Shown: in pieces, positions 10,977 through 46,122 of the stretch
Layout: each line of letters begins with the position of its first letter
How positions within the stretch are numbered: position 1 is the first letter of the stretch
Origin: Mobula hypostoma
Lineage: Eukaryota
Reading direction: 5' to 3'
Length of the DNA: 64,000 bases
NCBI RefSeq assembly: GCF_963921235.1
Contig: NC_086108.1
Span: 42,162,001-42,226,000 of the forward strand
Program-made: the position numbers and the translations under genes
The notes under the pieces: generated by a model
What the model saw: only the letters and a program-made list of their open reading frames with translations
Told to the model about the DNA's origin: nothing
Database searches by the model: none

Positions 10977-11039
10977 TGAATCTATAATGTTTGTTTTATT
11001 ACATATTGGACAGAGTTTTATTGTTTTCTTTAACATGCG

Positions 11040-13938: not shown

Positions 13939-14124
13939 ACTTCCAAATAAACACCTTTGACCTCAGGTCCATCAGGCAGTGCTCAGCAGTGAAATCCTTT
14001 AGATACTATGGGACAGGGGCTCTGCAGATATTGCAGGTGGTTTCCTGAGCAAACTTTGCAAATCATCTGGCAAGATGCCTCAATCAAATGTGTACTATTA
14101 ATAATAAAGCCAAAGACCCGGATG

Positions 14125-20380: not shown

Positions 20381-20627
20381 ATCTCTACCTTTTAGCAAAC
20401 ACTATTAACCCCTCTATTCTGTTGCATTGCTTGACTAGAGCAAAGTGAAATACTGTAACATCACAAAGAAAGGAAAGTTGATTAAAAGACTCCAATTATA
20501 ATTATATGTTTTTGGGATCTGAATAATTATCTTTAAGTTTATGTTTTCCTTATTCTATTGTATAATGAAACTTTGATTTTTGTTCAAGCAATTACATACT
20601 TCCTTTAAAGTTTTAAGGATGTAATAA

Positions 20628-20757
20628 CGTAAACATGAGGAAATCTGCAGATGTTGGAAATTCAAGCAACACACACAAAATGCTGGTGGAACGCAGCAGG
20701 CCAGACAGCATCCATAGGAAGAAGCACTTCATCAGGACTAACTGAAAGAAGAGATAG
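20628..20757 (-). mobile_element. Short Penelope-derived insert in the putative DDX59 zf-HIT region
   Basis: Exact 14-bp TSD taaggatgtaataa at 20614-20627 and 20758-20771. Confidence 0.8.
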
Positions 20758-22324
20758 TAAGGATGTAATAAATTACCTTACACCCAAGTTAACACCATAT
20801 TTATCTGCAACATCAAAGGAGGGAATTTGGTTCCCATCAAGTTCATGTCAACGCACAGAACAAAACTGTTCCCTATTATTTTTCCCCAAAACCTGTTTTT
20901 TCCACATTCATATCTACTCTCTGCAGATTCTACCACTCAAATCCATACTAGAGGCATTTTGCAGTAGGCCACTAATCCACCAAACCACCCATCTTCGGGA
21001 TGTTGTGGGTGAGGGATACTGGAATACCCAGGAGAAATCCTGCAATCACAAGGAGAACATGCAGATTCCATATTGACAGCACAAGAGAGCAGGATTGAAC
21101 CCAGGTCATCAGAGCTGTGAGATAGCAGCTCAGTTTGCTGAGGCACCTTACTGTCTATGCCACAAATAATTCATATTTAATGCTAAGATTGTTACTGTTT
21201 TTAATTCAGATCATCTGCCACCAAAGCCTTTGCTCATAAAATATCACCGGCAGTCCCGGCCACTTCATTGCCCTTCATCCACAGTCTCACCCTCCAGCTT
21301 CTATAGTTCCAGCTTCTCAAAGGTTCTGTTTATTGAACTCATCCTAGCCTTGTTCTGTTTACTTTCATCCTGTCTTCATTCTACCCTGTGTATACAGTAA
21401 ATGAAGTCAGTCAAAACTGTGCAGCTATTTGTTACATTACATCATTCTATTCATCCAATTTCTCTTTGTTTGCTAACCAACATTGGCTCCTGCCTAAATA
21501 TTCCATTATAAATTTCTGACCATTATTTTCAATTACCCCCATAGTCTAGCCCTTCCCTATCTCTATAATCTTCTCCAGCCATGTAACTTTCCAGATTTCA
21601 TGTAACTTTCCAATACAGTATCTTGCATAACTTTCCAATACAGTATCTTGCACACCTTCAAATTTAATCCCTTCATTGCTTGTGGCATGTCTTCAGTTGT
21701 TTGTGCTCTAAATTCCCTCCCAAAATCACTCCACCTAAATTAGTCATCTTTGTTTTGTTGAACCTGTGAAGAACCGTGAAGCTTTTGTCAGTCATTATTA
21801 TTAATGTTCTCTGTTATTGTCTCAGAATTGTTGACAATTATATTATGTTTTTGTGTAATTGTGTTTTCTTCATAATTATTCTAACAATTTCTGTCACAAA
21901 CAGAATTCTCACAGCATTAAATATCATTTCCCCAACCCCAACATCCATCATCTCTCCCACCGAAACTTAACATGTCCTTTGTTAAGGAAGAGATCCTTAA
22001 CCCCTTATTTTTTACACAACATTACAGCAAAGTTGTAATTAAACTGAAGGATTATGAGGACCAAAACCAGAGTAAATGGGAAGATTCTGTTTCCCATGGC
22101 AAAGGGTATCAAAGCAGGAAATACTGGTTTAAGTCAATAGTAGGAACATTAAAAAGAAAATGATGAAAGAATGTTACACCAAGGATAAAGAAGGGATTTA
22201 GAATCCAAGAAGAAACCTTCATCTCATTAAAAACCATATTTGGGCATGTGTTGGGAGATGATCCCAATGATACTCAGGTTTACAGTGTTAGTGCTGCCAC
22301 AATTCCTCATTGAAGGATATGCAG

Positions 22325-22960
22325 TGGAAAGTTGAGCAATTTCAGGTCCCTTGGTGCCCAGCACAAAGATACAACCATGACGAAGGCATGTCAGCATCCA
22401 TACTTTCTTGGAAGTTTAAGGAGATCTGGCATGTCATTAAAGACTCTGGCAAACTTCTATAGATGTATAGTGGAAAGTATTGTGACTGGTTGCATCACAG
22501 CCTGGTATGGAAACACCAACACAGGAGTGGCAAAGAGTACATAGCATGGTGTACTCAGTGAAAGGTTAAGGATCAACTGGTTGTACTCAGTCACAGGTAC
22601 AAATTTCCTTATCACAGAGGACATCTACAACAGGCAATATCTCAAGAAGGCAACAATCATCATTAAAGACCCCCACAATTCAAGCCATGTCCTCTTATTG
22701 CTGCAATTAGGCAGGAGGTACAGGAGCTTGGAGACCACATCTCAAGGCTCAATAAAACCTTCTTTCCCACTACCATCAGGTTCTTGAATGGACCTGAAAA
22801 CCCCACAATTTAATTATTTCCACAAAAATGTTTTTTGTTTATCGTGTCATTAAATAATTTATGTAATTTATGTTTGTCATTTTAGTAATGTAGTGTGCCG
22901 CTGCTACAAAAGTTAATTTTCATAGAATGTATACCCATGACAATAAACTCAAACTTGAAC
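22325..22960 (+). mobile_element. Rex/L2-like LINE 3' fragment
   Basis: YFLGSLRRSGMSLKTLANFYRCIVESIVTGCITAWYGN, a typical LINE ORF2 C-terminus. Tail acaataaactcaaacttgaact. Confidence 0.75.
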
Positions 22961-23016
22961 TTAAATATTTTGTAAACTGTAATGGCAGAATTCAGAGCAA
23001 CAAGTTCCATTATTTC

Positions 23017-23045
23017 TTTTTTGATCTTTAGGGCACTTATGACAT
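23017..23045 (-). pseudogene. DDX59: DDX59 remnant, start codon and N-terminal motif
   Basis: accATG TC ATA AGT GCC CTA AAG ATC AAA AAA reads M-(frameshift)-ISALKIKK, versus human MFVPRSLKIKR. Confidence 0.65.
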
Positions 23046-24517
23046 GGTGTCCAAAATGTGAATGTGAATCTGGTGTTAAGACATCCCCTGTAATTTCATT
23101 TATTGGGAATAATGTTGCAGCAACCAATTTGTTTCCATATCTTTTTGTTTCATGAGATAATATTTGACAGATGACAAGCAATGATTATTTTATAGCAAAC
23201 ATTTTCATTAGCAGCAACTTTGGGAAGGAGAGAGTTTGTACTGTAAACTATCTTTACATTTAATGATGAAAGATGTGATTAAACACATGTGTAAACAAAT
23301 GTTTTTTTTGTTTTACTATTATCTTCCTTAACCAAAATTGACAAAACAAACAAAAAGAATACTTCACCAAAAAATTAGTAATATTCTGTCACCAATTTTG
23401 GCATTGGATAGATTATCATTATTCTCCATGTAAGCTGCAATTTCTAAATCCTTGAATCATACTTAGTATGATTTTTTAAAATTCTAGTGCATTAAAGTTT
23501 GTGTATGCTGACACTTTTCCGTGGTTCTGAGTGACTGTTGCACTAACAGTACTGAAGTCCTTCAGTGAGAAGGCCCAGAGGACCTAAACGTCTACCACTT
23601 TAAAGAAGAGTGAGATGTATTGTAATAAACTGTAAGACGACACAGAATGGGTGGAAAAGTGGTATTAGTGGTTTGATACAAAGGAGTGTGAAATTTCCTG
23701 GAAAGAACAAGGAAACAAAGTATTACTTCAAAGTCTAAAGAGTGTGCATAATACCTCAGTTTTTAAACTGAGAAGCGTATGTCGCAAGTCCGTTTAGTAA
23801 GGCATGTGGGATCCTGCATTTCATAATTTTAAAAAAAGATTCACAGAATACAAAATCAGGAGGTTCAGTAACAAACTGTTTAGGCAATAACTACAGTGTT
23901 CCATTGTATATCAGTCAATTTACTTTATAAAGATCTGAAGATCCCAGAGAAAATGAGGAAGAGGTTTATCAGTATGTTTTCAGGAATGAGGGATTTCAGC
24001 TGCAAGACTGCACTGCGGAAGCTGAAGCACATGTCATTGGGGAAAAGAAACTTGATAGGTAATTGACACATAAGGTCATGGAAGATTTATGATGGGCAGG
24101 GGTTCCCAGCCTTTTCTATGCCACGGACTAATATCACTGAGCAGGGGGACTGTGGAGCCCAGGGTGGGAACGTCTGGAACAGAGAAAAACAGACCTCATT
24201 AGCAGATAGTTTCAAAAGAAATAGGGGATATTTGACAAAAGTGTATTTATGAAGTAAACCTCAGTGAAAACAAAAGCAATTGAGATTTCAAAAAGTAGTT
24301 GGGTTTCTGCTTAAAGGTAAATAATTGTAAAGACTATGTGGACAGGATGTGACAGAATAGATTAGGCTGTGTGGAGCTATCATTGGATTTAAGAGGTTGA
24401 ATTGCCCTTTTCTGTGTTATAATGATTCTGTAATATATACAAACACTCAAAGTGAATTATCTTTGAAAATTAATTTGAAGGAAATATTACTAAAGAGGAA
24501 GATAACTAAGAATAAAC

Positions 24518-24734
24518 AACGCAAACACGAGGAAATCTGCAGATGCTGGAAATTCAAGCAACACACAAAAAATGCAGGTGAACGCAGCAGGCCAGGCAGC
24601 ATCTATAGGAAGCGGTACAGTCTACGTTTCGGGCCGAGACCCTTCGTCCAGACCCGGCCGGAAACGTCGATTGTACCTCTTCCTATAGATGCTGCCCGGC
24701 CTGCTGCGTTCACCAGCATTTTTTGCGTGTGTTG
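24518..24734. mobile_element. Penelope-derived insert with inverted terminal repeat (about 80-bp hairpin)
   Basis: Arms at 24559-24636 and 24655-24734. Exact 11-bp TSD taagaataaac at 24507-24517 and 24735-24745. Confidence 0.85.
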
Positions 24735-25779
24735 TAAGAATAAACGGTTGAATGCATAACGTCAAATGCTCTGGGAACAAACCACAGTTGAATACAATGC
24801 ATCATTGACTGATTTTGTTTACCTCTTTGCTTAATTAACTCTAAATATTTTAATCTGTTGTACAAACGAGTTGTATTGAAAAGGTGTATCGGGTTTGATT
24901 TGTGTGCTACTACTCATTTGGTAGTACTGTCACCTTTTGAGCTGGAAGGTTGCGCGTTCAAGCCCCGCAAAAGCCGAGCAAAGAGTCTATGCTGACACTG
25001 CTCCACGGTCCTGAGTGATTGTTGGACTAACAGGATTGCAACCCTTCAGACGAGAAGTTAATTCTCTCAAGATGAACTAAAACTCTACAAAGACAGGCAA
25101 CTGAACTATCTTCGTGTCCTGTCCAATATTCATCCTTAATTCTTACAGCAACAATTAGGTCATTGCCACAATGCTGTTTGTGGCAGCCCGCTGTGCATAA
25201 ATTGTCTGTTGGGGCTCCGATTAAACTATAGGGACAATATTTATGGAATCCCGAAACGGACGTAAAAGTCCGTTGTCATCGGTCATTTGCCGTCGTTCAT
25301 TGTCATTTCCGAGCTAGTCCTTTAAACACCAAAGAATTGAAAATGTTCATGCAAAAAAATTCACATAAGCCATTTGTGTCAATATTATCCATAAAAGGAC
25401 AATAATTTATTTTTCGAGTTTAAATTATGTTTTATTTGTATTTTTCCCATTGCTGTTGTTGCTACAATAGTTCGCCTATTAATTAACGCGGTTGAATTAA
25501 TAGCATCAGCATTAGCGACGTCCGCATTGTGGTGGTTATTGTATTGTGGGATTCACCGTCTTCAAATGTTTGCTACTTTGAAACAAATTTATCACCTTTG
25601 GTTCATTAATCGTTATTTTAATATCCCAGTACAAACGATAAGTGTGGTATAAATATGAGAGCGAGAGAAAGAGATGTGATCGCAAAGTAATTTAATAGAG
25701 CTGAATTTGCCTAGGAAGTGAGGGCTCGCTATAATATGAAGCGATTGAATGGAAAATGAATGCATAATATATTGTAGTT

Positions 25780-26354
25780 GACGCGGCTGTTGCTTATTTT
25801 GAATGGCTCTTCGTCTTTTAGGAAAGAATGCGAAGAAAGACGAGGCCGGCGGGAAGGCAATAAATGCGGAGACAAACAATATGCACTGTCTGGAAAGGAA
25901 GGGGGAGGGAAGGTCCTAACTCCGACTGGCAGTGGCAGAGCGCGCGTTGCGCGGGGACGAGCTTCACCGAGAAATGAGCGGGGACGCGCAAACTTCACAC
26001 ACCCAGGACGTTGATGGGAACGCGCGGTGCGTGGGGTGGAGCTGGGAGGCGGCGGCGGCGGATTCCCGGTGCAGCGGCAGAAGCCCAGTGACAGGAGGCG
26101 GAGGATGGGAGCGGTTGGCCCTAGCTTCTGACCGTCACTCATCCGTACCCAGAGAAGCGGGGGTAGACTTGTCACTATAGAAAAGAAAAATATCCGGATC
26201 TTCCACATAAATTCACCGTCCACCAAAAAAAAACTGGTCCGAAGGAGTCGACACTTTCCGCGCTGCGGGGATGCCGTAAATCACGCAGGATTTTCCTTGC
26301 GGCAGAGCCAATTTTAAAGACGGAGTGAGCGGCTGTGGGCGCCGGGCTTCAGTG
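25780..26354 (+). promoter_or_regulatory. CAMSAP2: CAMSAP2 CpG-island promoter and 5'UTR
   Basis: CpG-dense sequence with a GGC repeat, directly upstream of the ATG at 26355. Confidence 0.75.
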
Positions 26355-26496
26355 ATGGGCGACACGATGGATCCGGGCAGAGAAATGAAGAAGACGTTCA
26401 TTGTCCCTGCCATCAAAGCCTTCGATCACTATGATTTTTCCAGAGCCAAGATCGCATGCAGCCTCTCGTGGCTGGTGGCGAAGGCATTTGGGACAG
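26355..26496 (+). CDS. CAMSAP2: Calmodulin-regulated spectrin-associated protein 2, coding exon 1
   Basis: MGDTMDPGREMKKTFIVPAIKAFDHYDFSRAKIACSLSWLVAKAFGT versus human MGDAADPREMRKTFIVPAIKPFDHYDFSRAKIACNLAWLVAKAFGT. Phase-1 donor G|gtaggt. Confidence 0.97.
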
Positions 26497-27288
26497 GTAG
26501 GTGGCGCGCTGTGTGCCGAGTGCGGGCTTTGCTCGGTTCGGAGATGGGAATGCAGCAGACAGCAGAGACAGAGACGGCCGGCCCTCTTTCCTACGACACA
26601 TCAGCACACTGGAAACTGCTGTGCGTCCTCCTTACACGCGGCTAGCCTCCGCCACCTTCCAATTTTAATTATGTTGAAACATCGGACGTTTTGTTTAAAA
26701 AAAAGTATAGACATTTGGCCGGTTCTGACTTAATAGGAAGGTTGTTGGGTCCTTATGCCCCAAAAGTGAATATCCCATTTGATCCTTTCCCATGTGCTGT
26801 GTTCATATGTTTTAGGAATGCATAACGAGTACAGGGATGTGTTGTTTCTATACAGATCAATCAACAACCGACACAATGTGTCCACAGTTTTTCTTTTGAG
26901 ATGGTGGTCGAGTAGTCGATTTGTTGACAAGATTATAATTATTCTTTTCTATGCCTGAATTTTGTTAATTATTTGCTTTTTCATTTATCAAAACGCATAA
27001 CGTGTTAATGCTATGGCATTAACATGCAAATACGGTTAACATTTATTTATAGATGTGTTTTATCTGTGCTATGTTTTACTGCAAATGCCTAAGGGCAGGT
27101 AAGACGAGGCCAAGGACGTGTAAAGGTAATTTTTTCTATATCGTCTGCAATGAACATTCGCACAGGAAAATACATCTGCGTTCTCTCTGCGTTATTTGCA
27201 CTCATTGTTGTAAAAGTGTATGGCTCTTTTGAAACTAAGTGAGAGCGAAGAGTGCCGATGTTGACTAAAAATAGGGTAAAGACTCAGT

Positions 27289-27326
27289 TAGTCCTGACGA
27301 AGGGTCTCGGCCTGAAACGTCGACTG
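27289..27326 (+). ncRNA. Minimal type I hammerhead ribozyme motif in a Penelope-derived insert (27291-27390)
   Basis: tagtc-CTGACGA-A-gggt(ctcg)gcct-GAAA-CG-TC-gactg: stem I, intact core, stem II and palindromic ACGT in place of stem III. TSD gtaaaga(c/t)tcagtta at 27276-27290 and 27391-27405. Confidence 0.75.
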
Positions 27327-27919
27327 TACCTCCACCTAGAGATGCTGCCAGGCCTGCTGCGTTTACCAGCAATTTTGATATGTGTTGGTTGTAAAGATTC
27401 AGTTACCTTGATTGGTTTCTTGATAAAGCCTTGACAATTCAGGGCAGTGTGGACACTTGTATGGCATCCCTTCCTCCCATAGAACTATTCTTTGTACACT
27501 GGTGATCAGCTGCACATTGAGCATTGCCTGATGTGGATAAGGAGAGCCCTCTGACATGGGACTCCCTGCCATGCTAGCTGCAGTTGAAGGCTGTGAGCTG
27601 TAAAGTGCAAAGTTTGCTGGCTTTTATTTCCTCTGGGTGGCTTTCTCAGCTAGTCAGGCTTTCCATTCTTTGGTGTCTCTTCTGAATCTGTCTTGAATAG
27701 TTAGCCTCTGGAGGTCCAGATCATTGACAGCTTCCATATCCCTAATGACCTTGTTTCCAGGTGTCTTCATCATGAAGGTATGGAGAGGAGGCCATTATCT
27801 AGTGGTCAGTTCAACATACAGGATATGTTTGGAATGATTTGGCACATGGTTGAACTTTGTTCTGCCAAGGGTTTCCAAGAAAATGTCTGAAGCAACAAAG
27901 GTGGACACTTAAGTATCCA

Positions 27920-28660
27920 TTAAGTGTGAAGTGGTTCATTTTGGTAGGTCAAGTTTGAAGTCGGAATATAATATTAACGGTAAGACTCTTGGCGGTGTGG
28001 AGGATCAGCGAGATCTTGGGGTCCATGTCCATAGGACACTCAAAGCTGCTGCACAGGTTGACAGTTTTGTTAAGAATGCATATGGTGTGTTGACCCTCAT
28101 CAACCGTGGAATTGAGTTCAAGAGCCATGAGGTAATGTTACAGCTATATCCGGTTCTGGTCACCTCATTACAGAAAGGATGTGGATACCATAGAGAGAGT
28201 GCAGAAGAGACTTACAAGGATGTTGCCTGGATTGGAGAGCATACCTTATGAGAATAGGTTGAGTGAACTTAGCCTTTTCTCCTTGGAATGATGGAGGATG
28301 AGAGGTGACCTGATAGAGGTGTATAAGATGATGAGAGGCATTGATTGTGTGGATAGCCAGAGGCTTTTTCCCAGGGCTGAAATGGCTAACACAAGGGGGC
28401 ATAGTTTTAAGGTGCTTGGAAGTAGATACAAGGGGGATGTCAGAGGCAAGTTTTTCACACACAGAGTGGTGAGTAAGTGGAATGCACTGCTAGTGAAGAT
28501 GATAGAGGGTCCTTTAAGAGACTCTTAGATAGGTACATGAACCTTACAAAAATAGAGGGCTATGCGGTAGGGAAATTCTAGGCTGCTTCTAGAGTGGGTT
28601 ACATGGTCGGCACAACATTGTGGGCCAAAGGGCCTGTAATATGCTGTAGATTTCTATGTT
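27920..28660 (+). mobile_element. CR1 3' fragment
   Basis: VHFGRS...RDLGVHVH and MRGDLIEVYKMMRG fragments, tail gatttctatgtt. Confidence 0.9.
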
Positions 28661-28683
28661 AAGTCTTTTCTCATGTCTTGTAT

Positions 28684-28897
28684 GCCAGTCGGTGGTGTAG
28701 TGGCATCAGCACTGGACTTTGAGGCGAGTGGTCCTTGGTTCGAATCCGGCTGGCTCCTTGCACTCTTTCCACCTGTGCTGGGTTGAGCGTTGAGCTAGCA
28801 ACTAAACCTTGTTTAAAAAAACAGACAAAGTGCTAAAGAAATGGCAAGGTTACCATCACCCAATGTGCCACAGGGCGGGGAGATGAATAACAACAAC
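28684..28897 (+). mobile_element. tRNA-derived SINE
   Basis: A box TGGTGTAGTGG and B box GGTTCGAATCC, followed by a non-tRNA body and a (caa)n tail. Confidence 0.75.
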
Positions 28898-28974
28898 TTG
28901 TGCCCTGTGTGCACTGTAGATATTTGTACTAAAGACACCAATTTGGTGAACTTGCAGTTTGCTGTTCTCTTATT

Positions 28975-29720
28975 CAAAGTACATTATGATCAATACTGGA
29001 TATTATCAAAGTATCTGTACTGTATACAACCTTGAGATTTGTCTTCTTGCAGGCAACCACTAAACAAAGAAACACAATAGAACCCCTTTTTAAAAAAAAC
29101 TACAGAGACTGTCAAATGCCCTTTGTGTGGAAAAAAAAGAATAAATCATGCGAACAATAAAAAAGTAAACGAAGAACAGATAGAGCATTAACTGCAGAGT
29201 TGCCGAAAGTGAGCCTGCCGTTACGGAGCCAGTTTAGCCCTGTGGTGAGTGCTGATGGTTGTAGGCCACAGCTGTAGAGTCATATCAGCGCTGAAACCCC
29301 TTGATCAAATTGTGCAAATAGTGAAAAAGAACACATGGAACATGAACTGCAGAGTCCCCAAAAGTGACTCCACAGCTGTGGCGCCCGTTCAGCGCTGGGG
29401 CGAGTGAAGCTAGTCCAGCAGCCCAGTGGCTGCAGGGCAACAACTGTTCCCAAACCTGGCAGCGTGGGTCCCAACACTCCTGCACCTCCTGCCCGATGGT
29501 AGTACTGAGAAGAGATGGAAACCAGTCAAACACGGGTTTTTTAAAAGGAATTCTATTGTGTTTCTTTGCTTTGTGGCAGATGGCAGTGAGCACCTGTTTG
29601 TTTTCTTCTCTCATCCTCGATGATTTTAATCCTGCTTGACACTTCAATCGGCGCAGGGTAATGGAGCCTACCTTGGGTTTGTATTCTGTCATCTGGCATT
29701 GATGCATGGTTCACCCCTAG
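28975..29720 (-). repeat. Dispersed repeat (LINE 3'UTR-like), homologous to 51045-51770
   Basis: Both copies share acaaccttgagatttgtcttcttgcaggca...gaacatgaactgcagag. Confidence 0.7.
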
Positions 29721-31548
29721 CGATGGCCACCCTGGTCCTACCTGTATTCCCTGGAGTCTAAATCACTGAATTGTTAGGTTGCTGTTGTTCCAAACTCTTT
29801 TGCTGAACTTGAATATGAATGGTTTAATTCAAGTCACAAGATGATCCATAAATGTCTTCACGAACTTTTTTCTTTTGTAGGTAGGCTTTTGAAGGAAATT
29901 TATTGATATGAAAGTTTATTTGCTTCCAATACAGATTTTTGTGTTGGGTTAGGTGACTGTGAGGACATAAGTAGCATAATGTTTATGGCAACATTAATTC
30001 ACTAGCTGGGTTTTTGGTTACTTCCCTTAATATCTCCTGTTTTGGTGGATTGGTGACAACTTTTGTTTCATAATGTTTCTGTAAGGTTTTATGGGAGCAA
30101 TCTAGTGTCTCTTTGAAAGTATAAAAGGGCTGCAAATGCTAGAAATACAAAATGAAGAGAAAGAAAATATGCTGAAATCACACAGCAGATCAGGCAGCAT
30201 CTGTGGAAGAAGAACCAGAATTAATGTCTTTGGTTGAAGACCTTTCATTATAATCAGATTTGACCAGACTCTGGATTCCTTTCGACAGATGTTGCTTGCA
30301 TTCGATTCTGTGAATGCCTTTTGTGACATGTATAAAGTTCCCATTTTCGGAACTTCTAAACTCCGAAGAGAATTCTTTTTATGGGCGGTGGGGTGGAGAT
30401 GCCTCCCTACTAAAGGGGGTGTAAGGTGCCCCTTCCCTCTGCAAGTGTGTAGGTCACTCTTGTGCAAGGTGTAGCACCTGCTTAGCCCCCTGATCATGGT
30501 CACATGAAGCCAAGGGGACAGATGGTGGATGGTCATATCAACAACTGGTGTATATGACAAGTCCTGGTTATGCGACCACTGAAGCCAGGTAGGCCATCGC
30601 TGAAGCATATTGATAATGGCTGGATCACCCATCTTGCCATTGCCTTCATCAGGGCAGTGTCTTTGCATACCACTTCTGTAGAAAAAATTGCTAGAAACAA
30701 TCACGGTCATGGAAAGGCCATGATTGCCCATGTCATACGACATGGCATGTAACAAACAAATTCCTTTTTAATAGAATTGAACTATTTGCTTACAGTTACC
30801 AAAGAAGCCTGATGAACATAAATATCCTTCTAAGGCAGTGCCTATCCTTTCCTTGATTGCCTTGTTTAAAATTTTCTTGTTGGATTCTTGCTCCTCCCAT
30901 GGCACTATAATGCCTCTGATTAAGGACATAGTGTTTGTTTATAAGATCATCTCATTTCTCTCATTCTTGATCATTATGTAACCAATAAGATGATTAAACC
31001 TAGCATGCTCTTTCAACTTCTCTGCACTGTCCATCTGTCTGATAAAATTAGAGAATTATTTGAACGGTTCCTCCAGCCACACCCATTTTGTTTCCTCCGC
31101 CTCCCAGGGGTTTTTTCTAGGCCTCCTGCTATATCTTGTCTCAGCACTATCCCTCGTAAGCCTGCACATCGGCAACACCCAGTTCCACTGTACCATCCCC
31201 AACTTTGACCTTCCACTACTGTCACATTGTTTGGTAAACGTCCAGTACTGATTTCCTTGATCTTGCCGAAAACTACCTGAATGTGAAGCAGTTGCTCACA
31301 GCTTTCATGGAATAACTTGTTAAGCTTCAGATTTTGTATCATTACCTATTTTCCATTCTGTGATGTTCTAGACCATGACTCTTGCTTTAGCTCATTTGCT
31401 GATGCTACCAACATCCATTGTCTTATGGCCAATGGAAAGTTTATTCCAATGCAAATCTGGCCAATCTCCCTCATTCCACCTTCTGTTATCAAAACTTTTA
31501 CTTCCCTTGTCCTAACGCACTCCCATGTTTTAATAGGTGTCTTCCATA

Positions 31549-32256
31549 TAGTCATAGTCATACTTTATTGATCCCGGGGGAAATTGGTTTTTGTTACAGT
31601 TGCACCATAAATAATAAATAGTAAAAAAAACCATAAATAGTTAAGTAGTAATATGTAAATTATGCCAGGAAATAAGTCCAGGGCCAGCCTATTGGCTCAG
31701 GGTGTCTACCCTCCAAGGGAGGAGTTCTAAAGTTTGATGGCCACAGGCAGGAATGACTTCCTATGACGCTCTGTGTTGCATCTCGGTGGAATGGGAGACA
31801 TGCAACTTGGACAGCATCCTCTTTTCAAACACCACTGTCAGAGAGTCCAGTTCCATCCCCACAACATCACTGCCCTTACGAATGAGTTTGTTGATTCTGT
31901 TGGTGTCTGCTACCCTCAGCCTGCTGCCCCAGCACACAACAGCAAACATAATAGCACTGGCCACCACAGACTCGTAGAACGTCCTCAGCATCATCCGGCA
32001 GATGTTAAAGGACCTCAGTCTCCTCAGGAAATAGAGACGGCTTTGACCCTTCTTGTAGACAGCCTCAGTGTTCTTTGACCAGTCCAGTTTATTGTTAATT
32101 CGTATCCCCAGGTATTTGTAATCCTCCACCATGTCCACCCTGACCCCCTGGATGGAAACAGGGGTCACCGGCACCTTAGCTCTCCTCAGGTCTACCACCA
32201 GCTCCTTAGTCTTTTTCACATTAAGCTGCAGATAATTCTGCTCACACCATGTGACA
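31549..32256 (-). mobile_element. Rex1/Babar-type LINE 3' fragment
   Basis: KKTKELVVDLRR...YKYLG...KKGQSRLYFLRRLRSF. Closely similar to 56910-57680 apart from two small deletions. Confidence 0.9.
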
Positions 32257-32860
32257 ATATGCTTGCTGATCTATGTTGGCTCGTAGTTCAACAATGTTTT
32301 CAGTTTTAAAATTTTCATCTTCACTTGTATATCCTTTGTTACATCTTTAGTGTCATCTTTAAGCTCTCAAAGCACTCTGCTATTGGTTTTGATTCCTCAA
32401 CCTCTCTTTCCTTCTTTCTCTTTATCCCTTTAGAATTTTCACTCCATCCAAGTACTTAACCATCTTCCACACTATTTCCATGTGAGGATTGGTATTAAAA
32501 TTTGTTTGTGAAGCATTGTAGGATGTTTTGCTCTACTAAAGGAAAAAAAGCTATCGATTGTTTCATTAAAATAAGAGAAATTATTTTCAATCTGTCACTC
32601 AGTGCAACTTGATTAAGAGCTTGTATGAAGGTTGTAAAATTGGCACATTTTATTGGTTATACTGGTTATACTTTTATTGGTTATAAATATGTTTGCATAA
32701 AACATATCTGAAACTTCAATCAAGTAGGTTTTTTTTATCCTTTGCTGATAATGTTTTACTTTGCCATTTAAGTACACTTCTAACAAGTTTCTTTTCTTTC
32801 AGCAACTTGCCTGACAAATTTCAAATCACTGCATTTTTTCCAATTTTGCTAGAGGAAGTA

Positions 32861-33865
32861 CAGGTCGACCTTCACTAATCTGGCACCATTGGGACCTGAG
32901 GAGTGCCGGATTAGTGAAAATGTTGAATTACAGAAGGAGCACATTAAGCAATAGCTACCTGCCTCATCATACCTTTAAAATATTATTTAAATCAGTACAA
33001 GTTAGATAATAATGAAACAGAAATATTAAATGAGTAGCACGTGAATTTTTAATAAAGTAATATACTGTGCAGGCACAGATAAAATAAAGGGTACAGGTAA
33101 ATGTACAGGAATTAGCTAATACAGAACAGTTGAGCACTTCCGCTTCTAAAGTGAGACGTTTAATATACCTTCAGGCAAAGTTACATGTCTGCAAGTGTGG
33201 GATTGTCAGGATCATCAACACCTTCATCTTGAAAAATGAGTCAAGCATCAGGAACTGGTGCTGAAACTGGCACAACAGTTTCTTCAAAAACTTGATGTTG
33301 GTGGCAGCACATCTGGGTGAGCAGAAGCAGAAGTCGGAGAAAGGAGGTCTTCTATACACCACATTTCACGCGACCGCCAGGCGGTCGGGGATTTGGTTCT
33401 GGACTCTTCCCTCTTCACTCGCAGTTACTGAGGAAATCCTCGTTAGTTTCTTTTCCTTCGCTTAGTAATATGTTTAAATTCAGCAGGTCACCACGTCTGA
33501 TCTAAGGTCGTAGGCAGAAGAGAACGGAGCGCCAGCCGGGCGATGCCAGCAGGCGGGCGAGAAGGCGGACCAACCCAGCATGCACCAGTTCCCCTGCCGC
33601 TGGCGGATGAGATGGGCAGGTGCCGGGCGGCCGCGCCTCACACAAATGATATTAATAAATGCAAGAAAACAAGCAGGAATCGCCTGTCTGTGCTTACAAG
33701 AGCACGCCAACACGTGAACAGATCTAGCGCAACCAGAACAATGCACAGCAGATTGGTACGGTGGCCTGAGAAATTTGAAATTACAGTTGTGCAGAGAATT
33801 TAAAATCAGTGCCAGATTATCGAAGGAACCGGATTACAGTTAGTCGGATTAGTGAAGGTCGACTG
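32861..33865 (-). mobile_element. Tigger/pogo-type non-autonomous DNA transposon containing an rDNA fragment
   Basis: TIRs cag(g)tcgaccttcactaatc / gattagtgaaggtcgactg with TA on both sides. Minus-strand LDSFFK motif near 33230-33250 resembles a Tigger transposase C-terminus. Confidence 0.85.
33335..33510 (-). pseudogene. Degenerate fragment of the 28S rRNA 5' end, preceded by GC-rich ITS2-like sequence (33511 to about 33640)
   Basis: Minus strand reads cgaccttagatcagacgtggtgacctgctgaatttaaacatattactaagcgaaggaaaagaaactaacgaggatttcctcagtaactgcgagtgaagagggaagag, the conserved vertebrate 28S 5' terminus with substitutions. Confidence 0.92.
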
Positions 33866-35070
33866 TATTCCCCAGCCCTTGATAAACATATAACCTTCTT
33901 GATTCCCATCATCTCAGGAGCCCACATTTGAAACAACATCCATTGATGGGATGGTTTTATTCTGAAGTTCTTGACTCACTAAAAGTTTAGATATTCTCAG
34001 GTTAGATCCTGAACCCAGTTCAAATTAAATTGAAAATAAAATAGACATCATTTACCATGAAGGCATCAAGTTCTGATCTTCATTTGTAGATATTTTAAAA
34101 ATGACTGACTGGAAGCTTGCTTGCATTTCTGGGTGCAGGATAAAGGAAATAGTTTGACTCGGCAGTGTTCTTGCTTCTGTATCAAAAGACTGAATTAGGT
34201 TATTACTACTCTAGATTCTTCTAGATTCTTGAGTGCAAATATGGGTTCACAGTGGCATTTTTCAGATGAGTCATAAAAGCAAGATCCATCTGTTCTCTCA
34301 GATGGACATTAAAAGATGCTGTGGCATTAATTTGAAGAGCAGGAGAATTAACTCCTAGTATTTTAACTGATGCCTTTCCTATATTCGTCATTACAGATTA
34401 TCTGGATGTACTGCTTGTAGAAGATTGCTTTGGGTAACTTGGGTGCCGTGTTTCCTAATCATATGGAACCTGCATGTCAGCAGCATTTCATTGGATTGAA
34501 AACCCATTGGGCATGTTGAAAGATTTTTTTCCCACCTTTTGACATTTTTGTGTTGTCTCCAAAAAAGTATCAAATAAGTATTTTAGGATGAAATGATAAA
34601 CATCTTCCTTTTTCATCTCAGCAACATGGTTATGTAAAACAGATAGAGGTCAATTTTAGTTTTCAATTTTCTACTGTATTGGTGGCTTTTTATGTATGCA
34701 ACTGAAAATGATCTTGAGAAATATTTCATCTTAGTTTTTTATATAACTGGCCTTTTGGAAAATTAGCCTCTTTTTTCCTGTTCATTTTCACAGTTCTAAA
34801 AGCAACATTAAAATGTGTTAGTGTGATGTTAGTGAGAGTTTGTCAGTATTTCAAATATGTTTAGTTATTTAAGGCTCCAAATTGCAGGTGTAAAAGAAGC
34901 CTCGGTGCCTAATTTAACAGTAATAAATTGCAAATTAACTAGGATACATTGGAGCAGGATACATTGCTATATATATCTCAGATTTTGTTTGCATGATATT
35001 TTTTGTTATGCTGATTAGAGAGAACAGTTGAAGGTTTATGTCCTCCCTAATCAATTGAGGTAAATTACAG

Positions 35071-35295
35071 CAACACACATAAAAGTTGCTGGTGAACGCA
35101 GCAGGCCAGGCAGCGTTTCTAGGAAGAGGTGCAGTCGACGTTTCAGGCCGAGACTCTTCGTCAGCACTGAGGGTCTCGGCCTGAAACGTCGACTGCACCT
35201 CTTCCTAGAGATGCTGCCTGGCCTGCTGCGTTCACCAGCAGCTTTTATGTGTGTTGCTTGAATTTCCAGCATCTGCAGAATTCCTGTTGTTTGCC
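35071..35295. mobile_element. Penelope-derived insert forming an 89-bp hairpin, with a hammerhead motif on the minus strand
   Basis: Arms at 35069-35157 and 35170-35258. Exact 13-bp TSD aggtaaattacag at 35058-35070 and 35296-35308. Minus strand reads CTGACGA-A-gagtctcggcct-GAAACGTC. Confidence 0.88.
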
Positions 35296-38200
35296 AGGTA
35301 AATTACAGGTGGGAGTTAACAGCCTCTTTCAGATATTCCACTGCATGGAACTAGAGTTCAGGAGAGTAAAACCAGAGTTTGAAAATTTTAAAGCAGAAAT
35401 ATTCAGAGGTGTACACTTTAATTGCATTAATAGAGTTACGTAATATCTTTAAATCCAGGTAAAAGAATTATCCCAAGGCATTTCATAAGAGCTGTATCAA
35501 ACAAGCATATAATTCAGGAGAGCTATTAGAGCAGCTGAACAAAGCCTGGTGCAAGATATAAATTTTAATGAATGTCTTAAAGGATGAAACAGGTAAAGAA
35601 GCAGAATGATGTTGGAAGTGGGAGCTGGGGGTTCAAAGTTTTAAGAGCCTTGGCTGCTGAAGAAATATCTCCCACTAATACAGCTATCAGATTCTAGGAA
35701 ACACAATAATCCAGAATTGGAGGAGCATAGATACCTTGTGCTGTGATAAACCTAGGAGTTGTCAGTGTTCTTGTGAAAAGTTACCTGGTGTTTGGATGCT
35801 GGTGCAGCAAGCATTTGAAAATATAAGGGAGTCAAATAGGAAGTGAAGGTGTGAGCATGGGAAGTAATTCTCTGGTTATGACTGGATAGATAAGAATCGA
35901 ATGAGAGAACAAACCTATCCAGCATGGGTGAAAGTAGAGCAGTTTTTTTGGAGGATGGTGTGGGTGATGTGTTAAAAAGACTGCATACAGGTGCAGAGAG
36001 GGGTTATTGCTATATAAATCCATTGGATGTTATCAGCTCCTTTGATCAGAGCTGTACAGTAGCAGGGAAATTACCTGTTAACAAGTGGTTCAAACAGGAG
36101 CTCTTCAACATGAGTACAAGATTGGGACACTGTGGGATGTAGGTTACCCTCTGCTGAGTAAGTGAGACTGGAGCAACAAACAATCTGCTGCAAGATCTCA
36201 ACAGGTCAGATATTGTATTTGAGAGGAAAGAAATTATTAATGTTTTTTGTAGAAATGCTGAATTAGGACTGTTGCAGGATTTCAACCTGAAACCTGAAGT
36301 TCAAGTTTAATTATCATTCAACCATACGTGAATATCCAGGAATACAGCTAAATAAAATGGTGTCCTCTGGGGCCAAGGTGCAAGGCACAGTACCGACAGT
36401 CATACACTGCACTAGGCAGATATAAGGTAGCAGTAAACATACAGTCACACAAAAAAATATATAGCCAAGTTCCTGAGTGACATGTCCTGTAAATTGATGG
36501 TACGTGGTTGTTATCGGCAAGAACAAGCAGATCTCAGTGGTCTGCAGACGAATGTATGCATGCACACACTTAATCCAGCTTGTCTTCAACTGAGTGGACG
36601 TTGGAAGGCAGCAGTGATGGGAGAGGCCAGCTGCCAACTCAACATGCTATACCTCTGACATCTCCTCTTCTGGACTGTGCAACAGGCAAGACTGCGGCTT
36701 GAGTCCTAGTCCTTGTGACCGTCAAAGTCACGCAGCTCCTCCGCCATCGGTCTCACCAATAAACAAGGGGAACGGATTTGCAGTATTTTACATTACCAAG
36801 CAAATGCAAGAGAAACATCCAAGAAAATCACTTGCTGTTTGACTGCACATTGCCTTCGTGCACCAACTCCAGTGCCTTTCTGACGCAGGTAGTGAAACAG
36901 TCTGCTCCAAGTCCAGCTCCTCCGCCAATAAGCAGCTTGTCAATGGAGTAAAAGCTGCAGTACTTGAAGTTCTTAATGTCTGCACTGTCTCGTGATCATA
37001 AAAAAGACAGGAACACTTCTGGTTGGTTCTGAAGAGGCTGCTGCTTCCGACCGTGCCTCCATCTTGCACATCAATTCTTTTCCTCCATTAATGCTGCTCA
37101 TCCTGCTGAGTTTCTCCAGCAGATTGTTTGTTGACTCTGCTGAGTTATGCAGATCATGAGTTGTTTTTTCAAATGTTAGTGTGATGAATATGAAGTATTC
37201 AGCAAAGATAAATACCAAGAAACTTGCACTACTGGAAAGTCAAATGATTGACTTTAAGAGCAGTGAGTGTTTGGGTTCATTTGCTTGGCAATGTATTGAA
37301 GCCTTTTATAGACACTTTAGGTCAAGCTGTATGCAATGAAGGGAAAACTAAGAGGATGAAGCTAATTGGGCTACATAATCTTTCCTTTTCTGCGACCTCT
37401 AATACTGCTTGTCTGTACACCCAATCGCAACAAATGTGGTTTAGCCAAACTGATGGGGATAAACAGGAACAAACAGATAGATTTGCAATTTATTTTAAAA
37501 GATGTAAGTGACATCATTTAAATCTCAACATTGTAATTAATATATCCTGTGAATAATTGTTAAGAAGCCCTTTTCTACAGAACATTTTGTGTGAAAATGC
37601 TTTTAGTTTTTAGCAGCATATGATTTCACATTTTTTCAGTAATGAACAGAATATCTTAAAACATTGCCCATTTTTAATACACTGTAAGTAAAATTAAGTT
37701 GGAATAATATCTGATACATTGATCACATTTGTAACTTTTGTATTCATAGAAAAGAGAAAATAGCTCATCTGGAACAAATAGGGCAGTTTATAATGTGGTG
37801 TCATTGCAATTACTGGGTATTAGCAATTGTTTCTTGTCATAGTTAGTCCCGTTTGAATGCAATTTTATTCTTCCATTATGTTAAGCTTCTGTATAGTTGG
37901 TTTTGGCTAACTTTCAACCTTATTGTATTTCTACATAAGGTACTGTATTTATTTTAGTTTTCAAAGTTTGCTGATGGACTTCACTTTCCCAAGACAGATT
38001 TATAAAATTATTTATTCTGTTTCAAATAATTTTCAAACTCTAATGGGACTGAATTTTTCTATTCCTTATATTGGGCCTGAATCTACTGGGAAGGGTAGTA
38101 GTTCAGTTTAGAACTGCTTGCATTTCTCCACCCACTTCCCTTTCCCTCTCCCCATCCTCTTAAGTTTCGGGAAGTTCAAATCTCAGCTCAAGCACGAAAA

Positions 38201-39046
38201 TGCAGAGCTTGCTGGCTATTCTATACTGGGGCTTTAGCCAACTGCAATGCAGTGTGAGAGAGCTCAACTTCCTGCAATATCTGATAGTTACTGTGTGGAA
38301 TTTTCCTACTGAACTTGTGCCAGATTAGATTTGCCACAGGGAACATCAAGTCATTCATTATGATGCAGAGGGTAAGAATTTGGCTTGATAATTTCGTGGA
38401 TTAATTGAGTTTGTTTTCAATTGTTTAAGAGCATTATAAATATTTTAATTTGTATTTTTCTTAAACTGTTCAATAATTTAATTAAGTTTTAAATCAGCTT
38501 TCGATGCCCAGAATTTTCAGAAGCATTCATTATCTTCAACAGGTTTGGAAGTCGATTAAGCCTGAGTGTATGGTTACCTGGTGGTCTTACATTTGTTCTG
38601 GACTTCTTGTATGATGGCATTGGGTTGACTTATGTAGCATTTGACCCAGCAGTTCTGTAGAGGGTGCTGTTACTGAATGAAGTGCTTTAGGAAAATACCA
38701 TGTCCAAAGCAGAAGTGTGGAAGAGTTTCACCAAATAGAGTGGGAATTTGTTATTTTAGGAAAAAACTGGAATTATTTTCAAATTAATTGAAATGAGGAG
38801 ATTTGAAAAAGTCTTAAGTTTATAAATATTTTTGTCAGTAAATGTCAAAAAATTTCTTCTTCCCAGTGATTGTAAATGCTGGATGTTCTTGACATTTAAA
38901 ACTTTAAATAATTTAAATGGTTAAAGAGTTTTTAAGTAAAAAACACAGATCAAAACATTGTTGGATCAGAGAAAATAACATGCTTTCCAGCTTTTTTGAG
39001 TTCTTTACGCAAATAACTGATATATGTCTTTGTTTTTATTATTAAG

Positions 39047-39306
39047 ATCATGTACCAGAGGAACTTAGAGAGCCATTTTACACAGACCAGTATGAACAGG
39101 AACACATTAAGCCACCTGTTGTCAACCTGCTTCTTTCTGCTGAGTTGTATTGCCGTGCTGGGAGTCTGATCTTGAAAAGTGATGCTGCCAAACCACTACT
39201 AGGTCATGACGCAGTTGTACAGGCGCTTGCACAGAAGGGTCTTTATGTCACAGAGCAGGAGAAACTAGTGACAGAGAGAGATCTTCGCAAGAAACCTATT
39301 CAGATG
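39047..39306 (+). CDS. CAMSAP2: CAMSAP2 coding exon 2 (260 nt, not in the supplied ORF track)
   Basis: (D)HVPEELREPFYTDQYEQEHIKPPVVNLLLSAELYCRAGSLILKSDAAKPLLGHDAVVQALAQKGLYVTEQEKLVTERDLRKKPIQM. Acceptor ttattattaag with phase matching exon 1, donor gtgagt at 39307. Confidence 0.98.
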
Positions 39307-41439: not shown

Positions 41440-44400
41440 TAAGAATATAATTGAATCTGCTTTCACCCATATTTGTCTTATCCCGTGGCGTCGGGTCTCA
41501 GCAGTAGTTATAGGTGACCAAACACAGCATTGGTGACAAGGTGTTGTTTTGTATTGACGTGACAATTTCAGAAGACTTGCATGCAATTCTGCAACAGCAG
41601 CAAGCTCAATTTGAGGCTGCCCAGCTGGAGGAATTGAAACCCTGACCATTCTGTTATCGGTGAGTCCAACAACATCGGTGTCTAACACTGAGCAGAACTT
41701 GTGTGAGTCAGTGATGCATCCATGACCAATTTCCAGTTTGATGCTGCATTGGGAGTTATGTTTGAATCATGGTTCAAACATTACGAAGATATATTCCAGG
41801 TCGAATTTGGCAATAAAGATGGCTCATGGAAGACACACACTTTACTCCGAAAACTGGGTATTGCTGGACATGAGCATTATTTCAAATTCATTCTAGCTGG
41901 GAAACCGCCTAACCTTTCATTTGGCGAAACTGTCCAATAACTCAGAAGCATTTTTGGAGAGCGGTCGTCTCTCTTCAGTGTTCACTACCACTGCCTGAAA
42001 CTCATCAAAAAAGATAGTGATGACTTCATCACAGATGTGTACTGGTGCCATCAATCACAAATGTGAAAAGTTCAAGCTGGGTAACATGATGGAATTACAG
42101 TTTAAGTGTCTGATTGTTTTCTTTGTGTGGACTTCAGGCACCTGGTGATGCAGAAATATGCAAGTCCCTGATATGTCTCTGCAAGCTGATACTCAGGAAT
42201 GTCAGCATTCGATCAACTTGAAGCAAGATTCCAACCTGGTCGAACAGAATCATGTCAATGCTGATTCCGATGATCCAGACATCATCACTCAGCAGGTCTC
42301 CAAGCGGACAAACACAGCTTGTTGGAATTGCAGTTCATGGCATTTTTCAGGAAGCAGCCAATACAAGAAGCATTTTTACAGCAAATGCCGATGGTTACCA
42401 AGAAGGCTTTTGCCATCCTTCACTGTCTTCTAGGTCAGTGAAACACAAGGACAAGAAATTTTAAAAGCCATCAAAATCTACAAGGAATTTAATGGTCACA
42501 ATCAGAGTTGACTTAATCCCCCCAGGAGAAGTTACATCAACTATTTATCAACAGTTAATTGGTCAAGCTACAACCTGATATAGTGTCAGACATCACCATT
42601 ATTTCCAAACGCACGTGTTGGGCAGTAGGGTCCCCACCAGTCAAATCAGAATCAGGTTTATTATCACTGGCATGTGACATGAAATTTGTTAACTTAGCAG
42701 CTGCAGTTCAATGCAATACATAATCTAGCAGAAATAGAGGAAAAAATAATAATAAATAAAATAAAACAATAAATAAACAAGTAAATCAACTATGTATATT
42801 GAATAGATTATTAAAAAAATGTGCAAAAACAGAAATACTGTATATTAAAAAAAGTGAGGTAGTGTCCAAAGCTTCAAAGTCCATTTAGGAATCGGGTGGC
42901 AGAGGGAAAGAAGCTGTTCCTGAATCACTGAGTGTGTGCCTTCAGGCTTCTGTATCTCCTACCTCATGGTAACAGTGAGAAAAGTGTATGCCCTGGGTGC
43001 TAGAGGTCTTTAATAATGGACGCTGCCTTTCTGAGACATCACTTCCTAAGGATGTCCTGGGTACGTTGCAGGCTAGTACCCAAGATGGAGCTGACTAGAT
43101 TTACAATTTTCTGCAACTTCTTTCCGTCCTGTGCAGTAGCCCCTCAATACCAGACAGTAATACAGCCTGTCAGAATGCTCTCCATGGTGCAACTATAGAA
43201 GTTTGTGATTAACTCATCACACCACCTACAATGCATCAGTGGAACACTCCAGCTGATTGGCCAGTTGCATTGTATGGTGAAGCTGAAGAGTAACCAAGTC
43301 AATGGTGTGTGTTACCTAATGGACCAGCCAGATCTGAATGTCCTTGGTATTGACTGGATGGACAAGTTTGATCCCTGGAGCATTATTCTGGATGAGGTCT
43401 GTACGAAGATATTGGTCATTTAGATCATGTCATTCAATGCCGTGCTACCATCAATACGTGAGACAGTACAACAATTACAACAGCACTATGCAGCAGTGTT
43501 TCAAGAAGGTTTTGATTGCTGTACCAAACTGCAAGCAGAACTCCAAGTCTGTTCAGACACAAAGCCAATCTTCTGTCCCAAAAGACCAGTACCATATGCA
43601 GCCTTACCAATCATGGTGCACGAGCTGGACCGCCTGCAACAAGCTGGTGTGATCAAAGCTGTCAGCTACTCATGTTGGGCAGCTCCAATAGTTATTATAA
43701 AGAAAGCCAACAGTACGGTGAGGTTGTGTGCAGGCTTCTCAACTGGTCCTAGTGTGGCTCTGGAGACACAGCAGTACCCATTACTGGTGCTGGCAGATGT
43801 CTTTGCCAAACTGAATGGTGGTGGCTATTTTGTGAAGTTGGACTTGGCTGAAGCCTACCTCCAGGTAGAAGTGGGGAAAATTCACAGGAGCTTCTCACCA
43901 TTACAAGACATAATTGGTGTATTTAATCCTCCTTTTGCCTTTTTGGGTAAGGCCAGCTCCTTCAATTTTCAAACAGCTTATGGACAGTGTTGCTGCTGAC
44001 CTCCACAATTTCATTGTGGGGGGCACGGATCAGGCAGATCTAAGCAATGCCTGGACTACACTTTGAACAAACTGCAAAAGTTTGGATTGTGTCTTCAGGC
44101 AGAAAAATGCAGCCTCCTGATGTCTTCAATCAAGTACCTGGATTCAAGTACCCGGTCATCACCCAGAACCCGAAAACATCCCTGCTATCTTAAAGATGTC
44201 TCCACCATCAGATGTCAGCACTTTATGATCATTTTTGAACACCATCAGCCATTATTCAGCATTTCTCCCAGCAATGCACCAGCCATGTGGAAATTGTCCA
44301 TACAATGCCAAGAGTCTTTTGATCAGGTGACGAATATGCTGTCATCCAACCTTTTGGTGCATTTTAACCCAGAGTTGTCAATCGTTGTCAGGACAGATGC

Positions 44401-46122
44401 ATCCAGCTACAGGGTGGGAGCTGTCATATCCCGTATCTTTCCTGATGGTTCCAATAAAACTGTTATGCATGCAGCCAGATCACTGACTACAGCAGAAAGG
44501 AACTATGGACAAATTGAGGGGGATGCCTTGGGAATCATCTTTGCTCTGAAGAACTTTCAAAAGATGTTTTATGGCAGACACTTCATTCTGTTTACTGATC
44601 ACAAGCTACTGTTGTCCATTTTCGGGTCTAAGAAAGACATCCTTCTGTATTCAGTTAACCATTTGCAAGGGTGGGCAATGATGGAATTGGCCTAAAGTGT
44701 TGAAATCAAGTACACATCAACCCAGGAACTTGGTCAGGCAGCTGCCCTCTCCAGACTTACAAATCAGCATAAAAACCCTGGCAAGAAGCTTTGTGTACTA
44801 CCTGGGTGTAGATGAAGATATCACAGCCATATGCAATCGGTGTACTTAGTGCTCTATGGCAGCAAAGAATCCAAGTAGAACCACTCCACAGCCATGGCGT
44901 CAAGCTACCAGATCTTGGAATTGAGTACATATTGCCTCCATTGGTCCAATCGTGGGTCTACCTACCTTGTCCTGGTTGACACCTATTCCGAATGGCCAGA
45001 AATATTATCTATGGTCAACATTGACAGAGGCTACCTTTCAACAGCTGCTGCAGATCTTCAGTTGCTTTGGGAGGTCAGAAACACTTGTTTCTGCCAATGG
45101 CACTCAATTCAATTCACAGCAGTTTGCTGCATTCTGCTAGAATAGTGGGATTATCCGCATTCACTCACCCCCATATCATCCACAGTCCATAGGCCAAGCA
45201 GAGAGGTTTGTAGATACCTTCAAACTGTCGCTTCCAAAATCAAGAGGGGAAGGCTGTCAACATATTTCTGCCGACATATTGAATTACACTGCATACAGGC
45301 CTCGAGGGGAAGTCAGCAGCTGAAGCACTTTTGGGAAGAAAACTGCACACAGTGTTGGATGCAGTGCTACCACAGCATCCAACATCTGAGGCAGCAGGTG
45401 GTCAGGTGCATAAAGGTGGCCACACAGACCTTGGTCAACGGGAGAAGTCATTCAAGCCTGGAGCTGCAGCATGAGTCAGACAGTATCGCAATGGGCAACA
45501 CTCCTGGGTACCAGGTCAGATTGGCAAATGAACGGGGAAAGTGCTCTACGAAGTTATCGTAGACAGATATCGGTGGCATTGCCACATCAACCAGTTGTAA
45601 CCACTGGTGCCGAAGGCACAACAAGTTTTTCAGACATATCATCAAACACAGAGCTGGACCTTCATCTACTGCAGGAAGGGTTTGATTTACCCCAGCTGAA
45701 CTGATCACCAGCCACAGCACAGTCGCAAGCAACATTGCAACAAGAAAGTGACAACCTGCAACTACTAAGAAGATCTGATCACTAGCATAAGCCGGTTGTT
45801 CCTATCCATTTTATCCCTCAGCTCAAATCCTACAGGTAATCGTCTTCAAGAGGGTGGTGTTAGGGTGAGCCAGATCAACTAACACCTATTGGTCAGAGAC
45901 AACCAATCTCAGACTGACTTTCACCGATTGGTTATTGTTCGTATCAACATTTTGAATGCTCTTGGGTAAACCATTTAAATAGTCGCGCTTTGGAATATAC
46001 TGTTGAGTTCTGGGTTTTGAGATTTTTGTGGCTTTACTGAATAAAGGTTATTTCATGTTCCGGCTTTGTTCTGTTATCTAGCTTCAGGTCTCATAAGTTG
46101 TTATAGGAAAGTGAACACAACA
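41440..46122 (+). mobile_element. Decayed Ty3/gypsy LTR retrotransposon, Mag/K02A2.6-like
   Basis: 5' LTR end at 41529 followed by PBS-like ttggtgacaagg. Gag (ILQQQQAQFEAAQL, FESWFKHYEDIF...LLRKLG), RT (WAAPIV, KLDLAEAYLQ), RNase H (TDASSYRVGAV, FTDHKLL), integrase (LVLVDTYSEWPE, SPPYHPQS). PPT aagagggtgg, then 3' LTR 45858-46122 (TGTT...AACA, AATAAA at 46040). The 5' boundary is approximate. Confidence 0.9.
42643..43205 (-). mobile_element. LINE 3' fragment inserted in the gypsy protease region
   Basis: Begins aatcagaatcaggtttattatcactggcatgtgacatgaaatttgtt, a tail shared with copies at about 9132 and 49373. Confidence 0.75.

Follow-up and report, generated by a model that had tools for sequence, protein, structure and literature searches.

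A multicopy, TA-duplicating transposon of rays that probably carries an rDNA spacer–28S junction, found in an intron of Mobula hypostoma CAMSAP2

The DNA analysed here is a 64-kb stretch (hereafter the window) of Mobula hypostoma, and its principal gene is CAMSAP2. Two plus-strand exons at 26355-26496 and 39047-39306 match CH_CAMSAP2_N and enclose a GT..AG intron that follows the first coding exon (26497-39046). The best-scoring relatives of the second of these exons are elasmobranch CAMSAP2 proteins, and among the 12 proteins compared only the Mobula hypostoma cluster is identical over both exons (47/47 and 87/87 residues). A long KIF14-like exon, giving a weak match, lies on the minus strand at 2890-4017, head to head with CAMSAP2. 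In human, DDX59 sits between KIF14 and CAMSAP2; by eye, no DDX59-like frame is present at 9000-26300, between the KIF14-like exon and CAMSAP2, among open reading frames of at least 90 aa. The window also contains several retroelements, including a little-decayed LINE at 16406-19286 with two long overlapping plus-strand frames (528 and 458 aa; RVT_1, with zf-RVT just below cut-off), two copies of a LINE 3' part that are 94% alike (31799-32257 and 57228-57683, with RVT_1 at 57671-58645), and an LTR-retrotransposon remnant inside CAMSAP2 at 43424-45700, with RT_RNaseH domains at 44000-44692. Two further stretches, 60595-60717 and 21603-21652, are perfect tandem duplications whose periods are 55 and 25 nt, respectively.

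Within the CAMSAP2 intron, inspection of the sequence delimits a 1005-bp element spanning 32861-33865, with TA at both edges (32859-32860 and 33866-33867). The terminal inverted repeats (TIRs) flanked by TA that the original prediction described are indeed present, and include a perfect 17-nt inverted repeat formed by 32864-32880 and 33847-33863. The element reads on the minus strand, such that its 5'-end TIR (33847-33865, minus strand) starts with CAGT and its 3'-end TIR (32861-32880, plus strand) starts with CAGG. We placed contigs from four of 24 listed runs (X1, X5, X9 and X15, from four organisms) on the window at 80% likeness, yielding 2853, 2696, 1319 and 67 placed contigs in the four runs; the detail given below derives from those listed, namely 32 pieces (of 7007), 15 joints (of 38) and 24 loose ends (of 363). 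Many contig loose ends begin before 32858-32859 in all four runs, and loose ends occur behind 33863-33867 in X1, X5 and X15, consistent with the flanking TAs constituting a target-site duplication (TSD). Next to the 3' end is a subterminal palindrome (32871-32918; a 16-nt pair, 94%) with a folding z of -3.33, lying within a 3' arm (32861-33180, minus strand) that is an AT-rich untranslated part, with a GC content of 32% in 32950-33180. The 5' arm (33642-33865, minus strand) is 224 nt long and a sequence scan found no ATG in it. No second copy of the element was found within the window.

The element had been proposed to be of Tigger type, and this holds for the ends only. We used a 14-nt motif derived from three insect Tig1-like Tigger TIRs (PMC7386202, supplement 3, rows 247, 248 and 253), and it matches twice at the left end, in the subterminal palindrome, where the chance mean is 0.17 and two matches were reached in 1 of 100 shuffles. 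TA target-site duplication is described as a defining Tigger trait (PMC9219625), and the element combines this with a short TIR (up to about 40 bp) that has a CAG start and the Tigger-type motif. These are also the features it shares with the Tig1-like Tiggers of Gao et al. (2020, PMC7386202), together with two that we recognise by eye: the 3' end has a palindromic motif repeat, and a second motif lies about 50 nt inward from the 5' end. TIR bases 5-12 differ, and the Tig1-like insect proteins, as far as their sequences of about 400 letters extend, appear by eye to end near a ..YFK motif, whereas the tail of the ray element is acidic. Of the four chondrichthyan Tigger rows in Table S1 of PMC9219625, none has the TIR of the ray element. 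A transposase core (CENP-B_N, HTH_Tnp_Tc5 or DDE_1, with a DD32-34D-type triad) is absent from the window copy, searches with the TIR and the tail found no autonomous parent or partner element, and a TIR pattern scan of metagenomes gave 0 matches. The ends suggest a Tigger-like parentage.

The central part of the element is derived from rDNA. The prediction that the 5' terminus of 28S is present on the minus strand is borne out by a match to Rfam LSU_rRNA_eukarya (RF02543) scoring 83.1 bits against a gathering score of 50, and this is the sole gathering-level Rfam match across the whole window. Position 1 of the 28S model maps to 33510 in a permissive Rfam search. The other end is less sharply defined by the model, and extension of the match past about 33340 was disregarded on account of its low posterior values; an alignment in X15 (record 12) starts at 33333, preceded by 30 unaligned letters, and the inner limit is therefore placed at about 33333. 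The segment thus corresponds to the 5'-terminal ~178 nt of the 28S rRNA gene (33333-33510), and comparison with contigs refines the extent of the whole rDNA block to about 33333-33641, or ~309 nt. The remaining matches of the permissive search fall far under their own gathering scores and were dismissed as chance. At the junction between 28S and transposon there is a 6-nt tandem duplication (33322-33333), which by gap counts is seemingly also present in record 28 of X9 and record 11 of X15; it could have arisen by templated insertion during repair, or by slippage at an earlier time.

The GC-rich sequence of about 130 nt that had been reported directly upstream of 28S is 131 nt long (33511-33641, minus strand), with a GC content of 71%, compared with 32-48% in other segments. 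We consider it very probable that this is the 3'-terminal part of ITS2, because it adjoins position 1 of the 28S model, because contigs continue it as GC-rich sequence, and because of its depth and CpG behaviour in X1 and X5. One contig each in X1, X5 and X9 follows the window to 33641 and then runs on into related GC-rich sequence and not the transposon arm, the continuations being visible as 17-30 letters each. In X1 and X5 the depth of about 2400-2700 at 33544-33589 is on a par with that of about 2300-2400 within 28S at 33385. Intact CpG makes up 0.94-0.97 of the ITS2-like depth in these two runs but mostly 0.65-0.87 at arm sites, apart from a value of 0.96 at one site in an X5 arm, and this contrast argues for a homogenised rDNA array as the source of the ITS2-like depth; X9 lacks it, with 0.92-0.95 in the ITS2-like depth and 0.97-1.0 in the arms. 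That the 131 nt could instead be GC-rich sequence of unrelated origin fused to part of 28S draws on the shortness of the visible continuations and on the lack of a reference ITS2 alignment, as the full texts and supplements of PMC9359134 and PMC13183237 provide no ray ITS2 reference. We give little credence to this explanation, as there is no break before position 1 of the 28S model, a contig in each of three organisms runs through into related GC-rich sequence, and the X1 and X5 depths are those of 28S. The behaviour of the upstream part therefore favours the earlier suggestion that the donor was rDNA or pre-rRNA, insofar as it can be judged from contig continuation and depth. A scan of metagenomes with a spacer–28S junction pattern gave 0 matches, and folding of the ITS2-like strand gave a z of 0.66. 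ITS2 is reported to be 1282-1365 bp in one shark genus (PMC3322161), and the 131-nt piece would therefore represent about the last tenth of ITS2. Loose ends in X9 at 33549 and 33606 indicate that the organism of this run (organism C) has a differing ITS2-like version beside that of the window, which would be expected had its rDNA spacer changed since capture.

Adjoining the 28S segment on its transposon side is a likely remnant of the transposase (33181-33332, minus strand; stop codon at 33181-33183). This segment had been read as encoding LDSFFK, but the same letters shifted by one carry the coding signal, in a frame running FEETVV..PTLADM* in 33181-33290. Among the 36 codons of this frame, 18 have G in the first position and 2 in the second, a contrast reached by 0 of 10000 shuffles, and we interpret the frame as likely being the acidic C-terminal tail of a transposase. 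The window copy has a private stop at 33241-33243 that rests on the letter at 33242; a different letter stands there in nearly all of the depth of X1, X5 and X9, and with it both the stop and the D of LDSFFK vanish. The window copy also lacks 2 nt behind 33291 that are present in about half of the contig depth. Homologues of the tail were sought in a word-index search (0 of 3 candidates scored), among 1.84 billion representative proteins (0 matches) and in Pfam (no family), all of them weak negatives for a low-complexity query of 35-41 aa. An ESM Atlas search with the LDSFFK frame gave no lead, its best score being 0.80 (recognition 1188). Published pogo transposases are 300-977 aa (PMC7386202), and given the shortness of the tail and the 5' arm without ATG, most of the open reading frame would be gone.

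The original prediction raised the prospect of a multicopy composite, and the contigs confirm it: diverged copies that span the rDNA–transposon junctions are present in four organisms. The right junction is bridged by at least 31 letters in five of the 32 listed pieces (X1 records 3 and 4; X5 records 19, 20 and 21). These differ from the window by 12-19%, compared with 0% (X1) and 2% (X5) for the flank of the locus, and the bridging pieces are therefore paralogues. Two of the 32 listed pieces bridge the left junction. One of these, X15 record 11, differs by 7.5% plus 13 gaps, compared with 0.5% in its own flank; the other, X9 record 28, may be an orthologue of the window copy. Record 19 of X5 covers the whole block together with 116 letters of the 5' arm and 11 letters of the left arm, and by the 31-letter rule no listed piece (n = 32) bridges both junctions; X1 record 2 and X9 record 29, which extend 30 letters past 33641, were left out of the bridging count. 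Summed depth in X1, X5 and X9 relative to the right flank is 107-432x in the left-arm bins checked and 5600-13600x at the ends, figures that are not copy numbers and that we take only as indicating many copies. The window insertion itself is present in organism B (56 element letters in X5 record 24), and 24 TIR letters in X9 record 32 are suggestive of its being shared with organism C. The family thus has the makeup of a Pack-TIR, with captured non-TE sequence enclosed on either side by sequence of a TIR element, a TSD, and occurrence at several loci.

Other forms of the family are evident from the contig joints. A joint of 32947-32950 to 33804-33805, found in all four runs, corresponds to a ~152-bp form consisting of just the two ends (32861-32950 plus 33804-33865). 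This is the most abundant relative, far commoner than the cargo-bearing form, and is likely the source of the very high depth at both ends. A joint of 33114 to 33406, with a depth of 115 compared with a flank depth of 7 in X9, and of 16 in X5, represents a deletion form of ~715 bp in which about 105 nt of 28S survive together with the ITS2-like part. Three X9 contigs exit the window at 33327 into non-rDNA sequence, so that block-free long forms likely exist; among the 15 listed of 38 joints, none removes the rDNA block alone. MITEs are short, non-coding elements with a size limit of a few hundred bp. The ~152-bp form, being short, abundant and equipped with TIRs, fits this description, but the 1005-bp composite, for which a Pack-type MITE family had been suggested, is better termed a non-autonomous deletion derivative.

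A plausible origin for the composite begins with a Tigger-like founder copy that would have been broken, either by excision or by replication-fork stalling. Repair may then have switched template to host rDNA, copying ~309 nt over the ITS2–28S junction, and rejoined within the last ~50 codons, with the consequence that rDNA would replace most of the transposase gene. With both of its ends intact, the founder could have been mobilised in trans by the transposase of an intact partner to many sites, of which the CAMSAP2 intron would be one; a later internal deletion would have generated the shorter form still holding rDNA, and the cargo would have decayed since capture as a passenger. Two routes have been proposed for the Pack-TIRs of animals, gap-filling and FoSTeST template switching (PMC8277862), and either may apply to the ray element. 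Microhomology at the breakpoints is frequent in Pack-TIRs without being required. We are fairly confident that the element belongs to a multicopy family of non-autonomous ray DNA transposons that duplicate TA and carry rDNA, and, jointly with this, that capture by template switching replaced the transposase core. Capture of the cargo from a DNA template, considered separately, also seems probable to us. The cargo looks like a passenger because the window copy has private, partly CpG-type changes and because the cargo-free short form is the most abundant, and we infer both mobilisation in trans and neutrality of the cargo.

Several other explanations merit consideration, and the ends of the block bear on more than one of them. 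Retroposed rRNA copies typically have their own TSD and an A-rich 3' tail. A check of the block revealed no direct repeat of at least 4 nt across its ends and no A run, and with this lack of a TSD and A tail, together with the bridging paralogues, we reject a one-off later insertion of rDNA with its own TSD into a single transposon copy, which had been put forward as the alternative to a spreading family. In favour of such an event one could cite the X9 contigs that depart from the left arm at 33327 into sequence other than rDNA, and the fact that 15 of 38 joints are listed, but none of those 15 skips the block alone, and the paralogous contigs bridge junctions in X1, X5 and X15. A one-off insertion is thus hardly credible, and we regard it as refuted, unless all of the bridging contigs are segmental duplicates of the window locus. 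The block and the likely transposase frame have the same sense, which an RNA template would also permit. In that case a LINE enzyme would have reverse-transcribed an ITS2-extended pre-28S RNA at a break in a Tigger-like copy, target sequence being deleted, and the composite would then have been amplified. Reverse-transcriptase remnants are plentiful in the genome, and capture of reverse-transcribed RNA at breaks has been reported (PMC4516963). We nonetheless consider an RNA source unlikely: the missing A run and TSD argue against it, the 3' end of the block falls inside 28S at about nt 178 and not at an RNA end, and replacement of most of the open reading frame would be explained more simply by gap repair.

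A closer partnership with rDNA can also be envisaged, in which the family sits in, or exchanges with, the rDNA as Pokey does, or in which selection maintains the cargo, for instance because it yields small RNAs antisense to rRNA or serves as a handle for recombination. The rDNA-derived repeats of Pokey evolve in concert with rDNA (PMC3849761), the ~715-bp deletion derivative retains the ITS2 side and part of 28S, and converted copies could be among the six X9 contigs that have another version of the ITS2-like stretch behind 33549. Arguing the other way, the block of the window copy departs from the majority sequence at many positions, several of them CpG (among the 16 listed of the 40 best-supported differences), the paralogous pieces across the junction are 12-19% apart, and the ~152-bp form without cargo is far more abundant. 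We therefore view a partnership of this kind as very improbable. There is similarly only a slight chance that the cargo aided the spread of a vertebrate Tigger-like family whose copies exchange with rDNA arrays or, from within host introns, feed antisense small RNAs against the processing junction of pre-rRNA. The antisense placement within the CAMSAP2 intron, to which the original prediction drew attention, stands as geometry, with a minus-strand block in a plus-strand gene, but not in any meaning of the orientation, since orientation is a coin toss and the copy has private CpG-type decay. Nothing favours a function for the antisense intron copy.

If the copies can be dated, they would constitute many frozen versions of an ancestral ray ITS2–28S junction, opening two questions, one on the origin of Pack-TIRs and the other on the turnover of rDNA spacers relative to neutral copies. 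In sharks, ITS2 serves as a species marker (PMC3322161). Dispersed copies could cause false 28S matches in ray rRNA annotation, in estimates of rDNA copy number and with probes for the 28S 5' end. We found no published description of the ray composite family in the literature, and there may be a Repbase or Dfam entry for it.

Among known systems, the animal Pack-TIRs resemble the ray element in having intact TIR ends and a TSD around captured host sequence, in renewed transposition, and in the template switching proposed for them. The survey of Tan et al. (2021, PMC8277862) reports 370 Pack-TIRs in 100 genomes, mostly single-copy; the multicopy ones are four from frog and alligator and, in addition, Ssk-FB4. 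A search of its main text for rRNA or rDNA gives 0 matches. The gaps in those elements have a median of 4.6% of the element, whereas in the ray element the cargo is rDNA, seemingly replaces most of the open reading frame, and is present in many copies. The ray family would accordingly be an uncommonly successful multicopy Pack-TIR.

A 2024 review of rDNA-derived transposon sequences (PMC10946416, section 11) gives Pokey/mPok as the sole DNA transposon and SINE28 as the sole carrier of 28S, and a TA-type vertebrate family with an amplified spacer–28S junction would be a new entry in its table. SINE28 of mammals is likewise a dispersed repeat containing 28S sequence (PMC10946416), but it is a retrotransposon, whereas the ray element is bounded by TIRs and a TA TSD, includes spacer sequence and lacks an A tail, and its rDNA block lacks the TSD of its own and the A-rich tail of SINE28-like retroposition. 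Pokey and mPok, piggyBac elements of Daphnia, are more similar in that a DNA transposon carries rDNA-derived sequence, including an ITS2 piece of ~48 bp, and has MITE derivatives (PMC3849761, PMC10946416). Pokey targets a TTAA site in 28S genes, whereas the ray element duplicates TA and is dispersed and intronic, with neither a TTAA target, nor piggyBac ends, nor a 28S insertion. In Pokey, IGS and ITS2 repeats are located in the 5' non-coding region of autonomous elements and evolve in concert with rDNA (PMC3849761), whereas the ray element contains one contiguous spacer–28S junction that includes rRNA-coding sequence and has decayed. Pokey is nonetheless the closest precedent, and the ray element is an uncommon but mechanistically ordinary capture of host DNA by a transposon.
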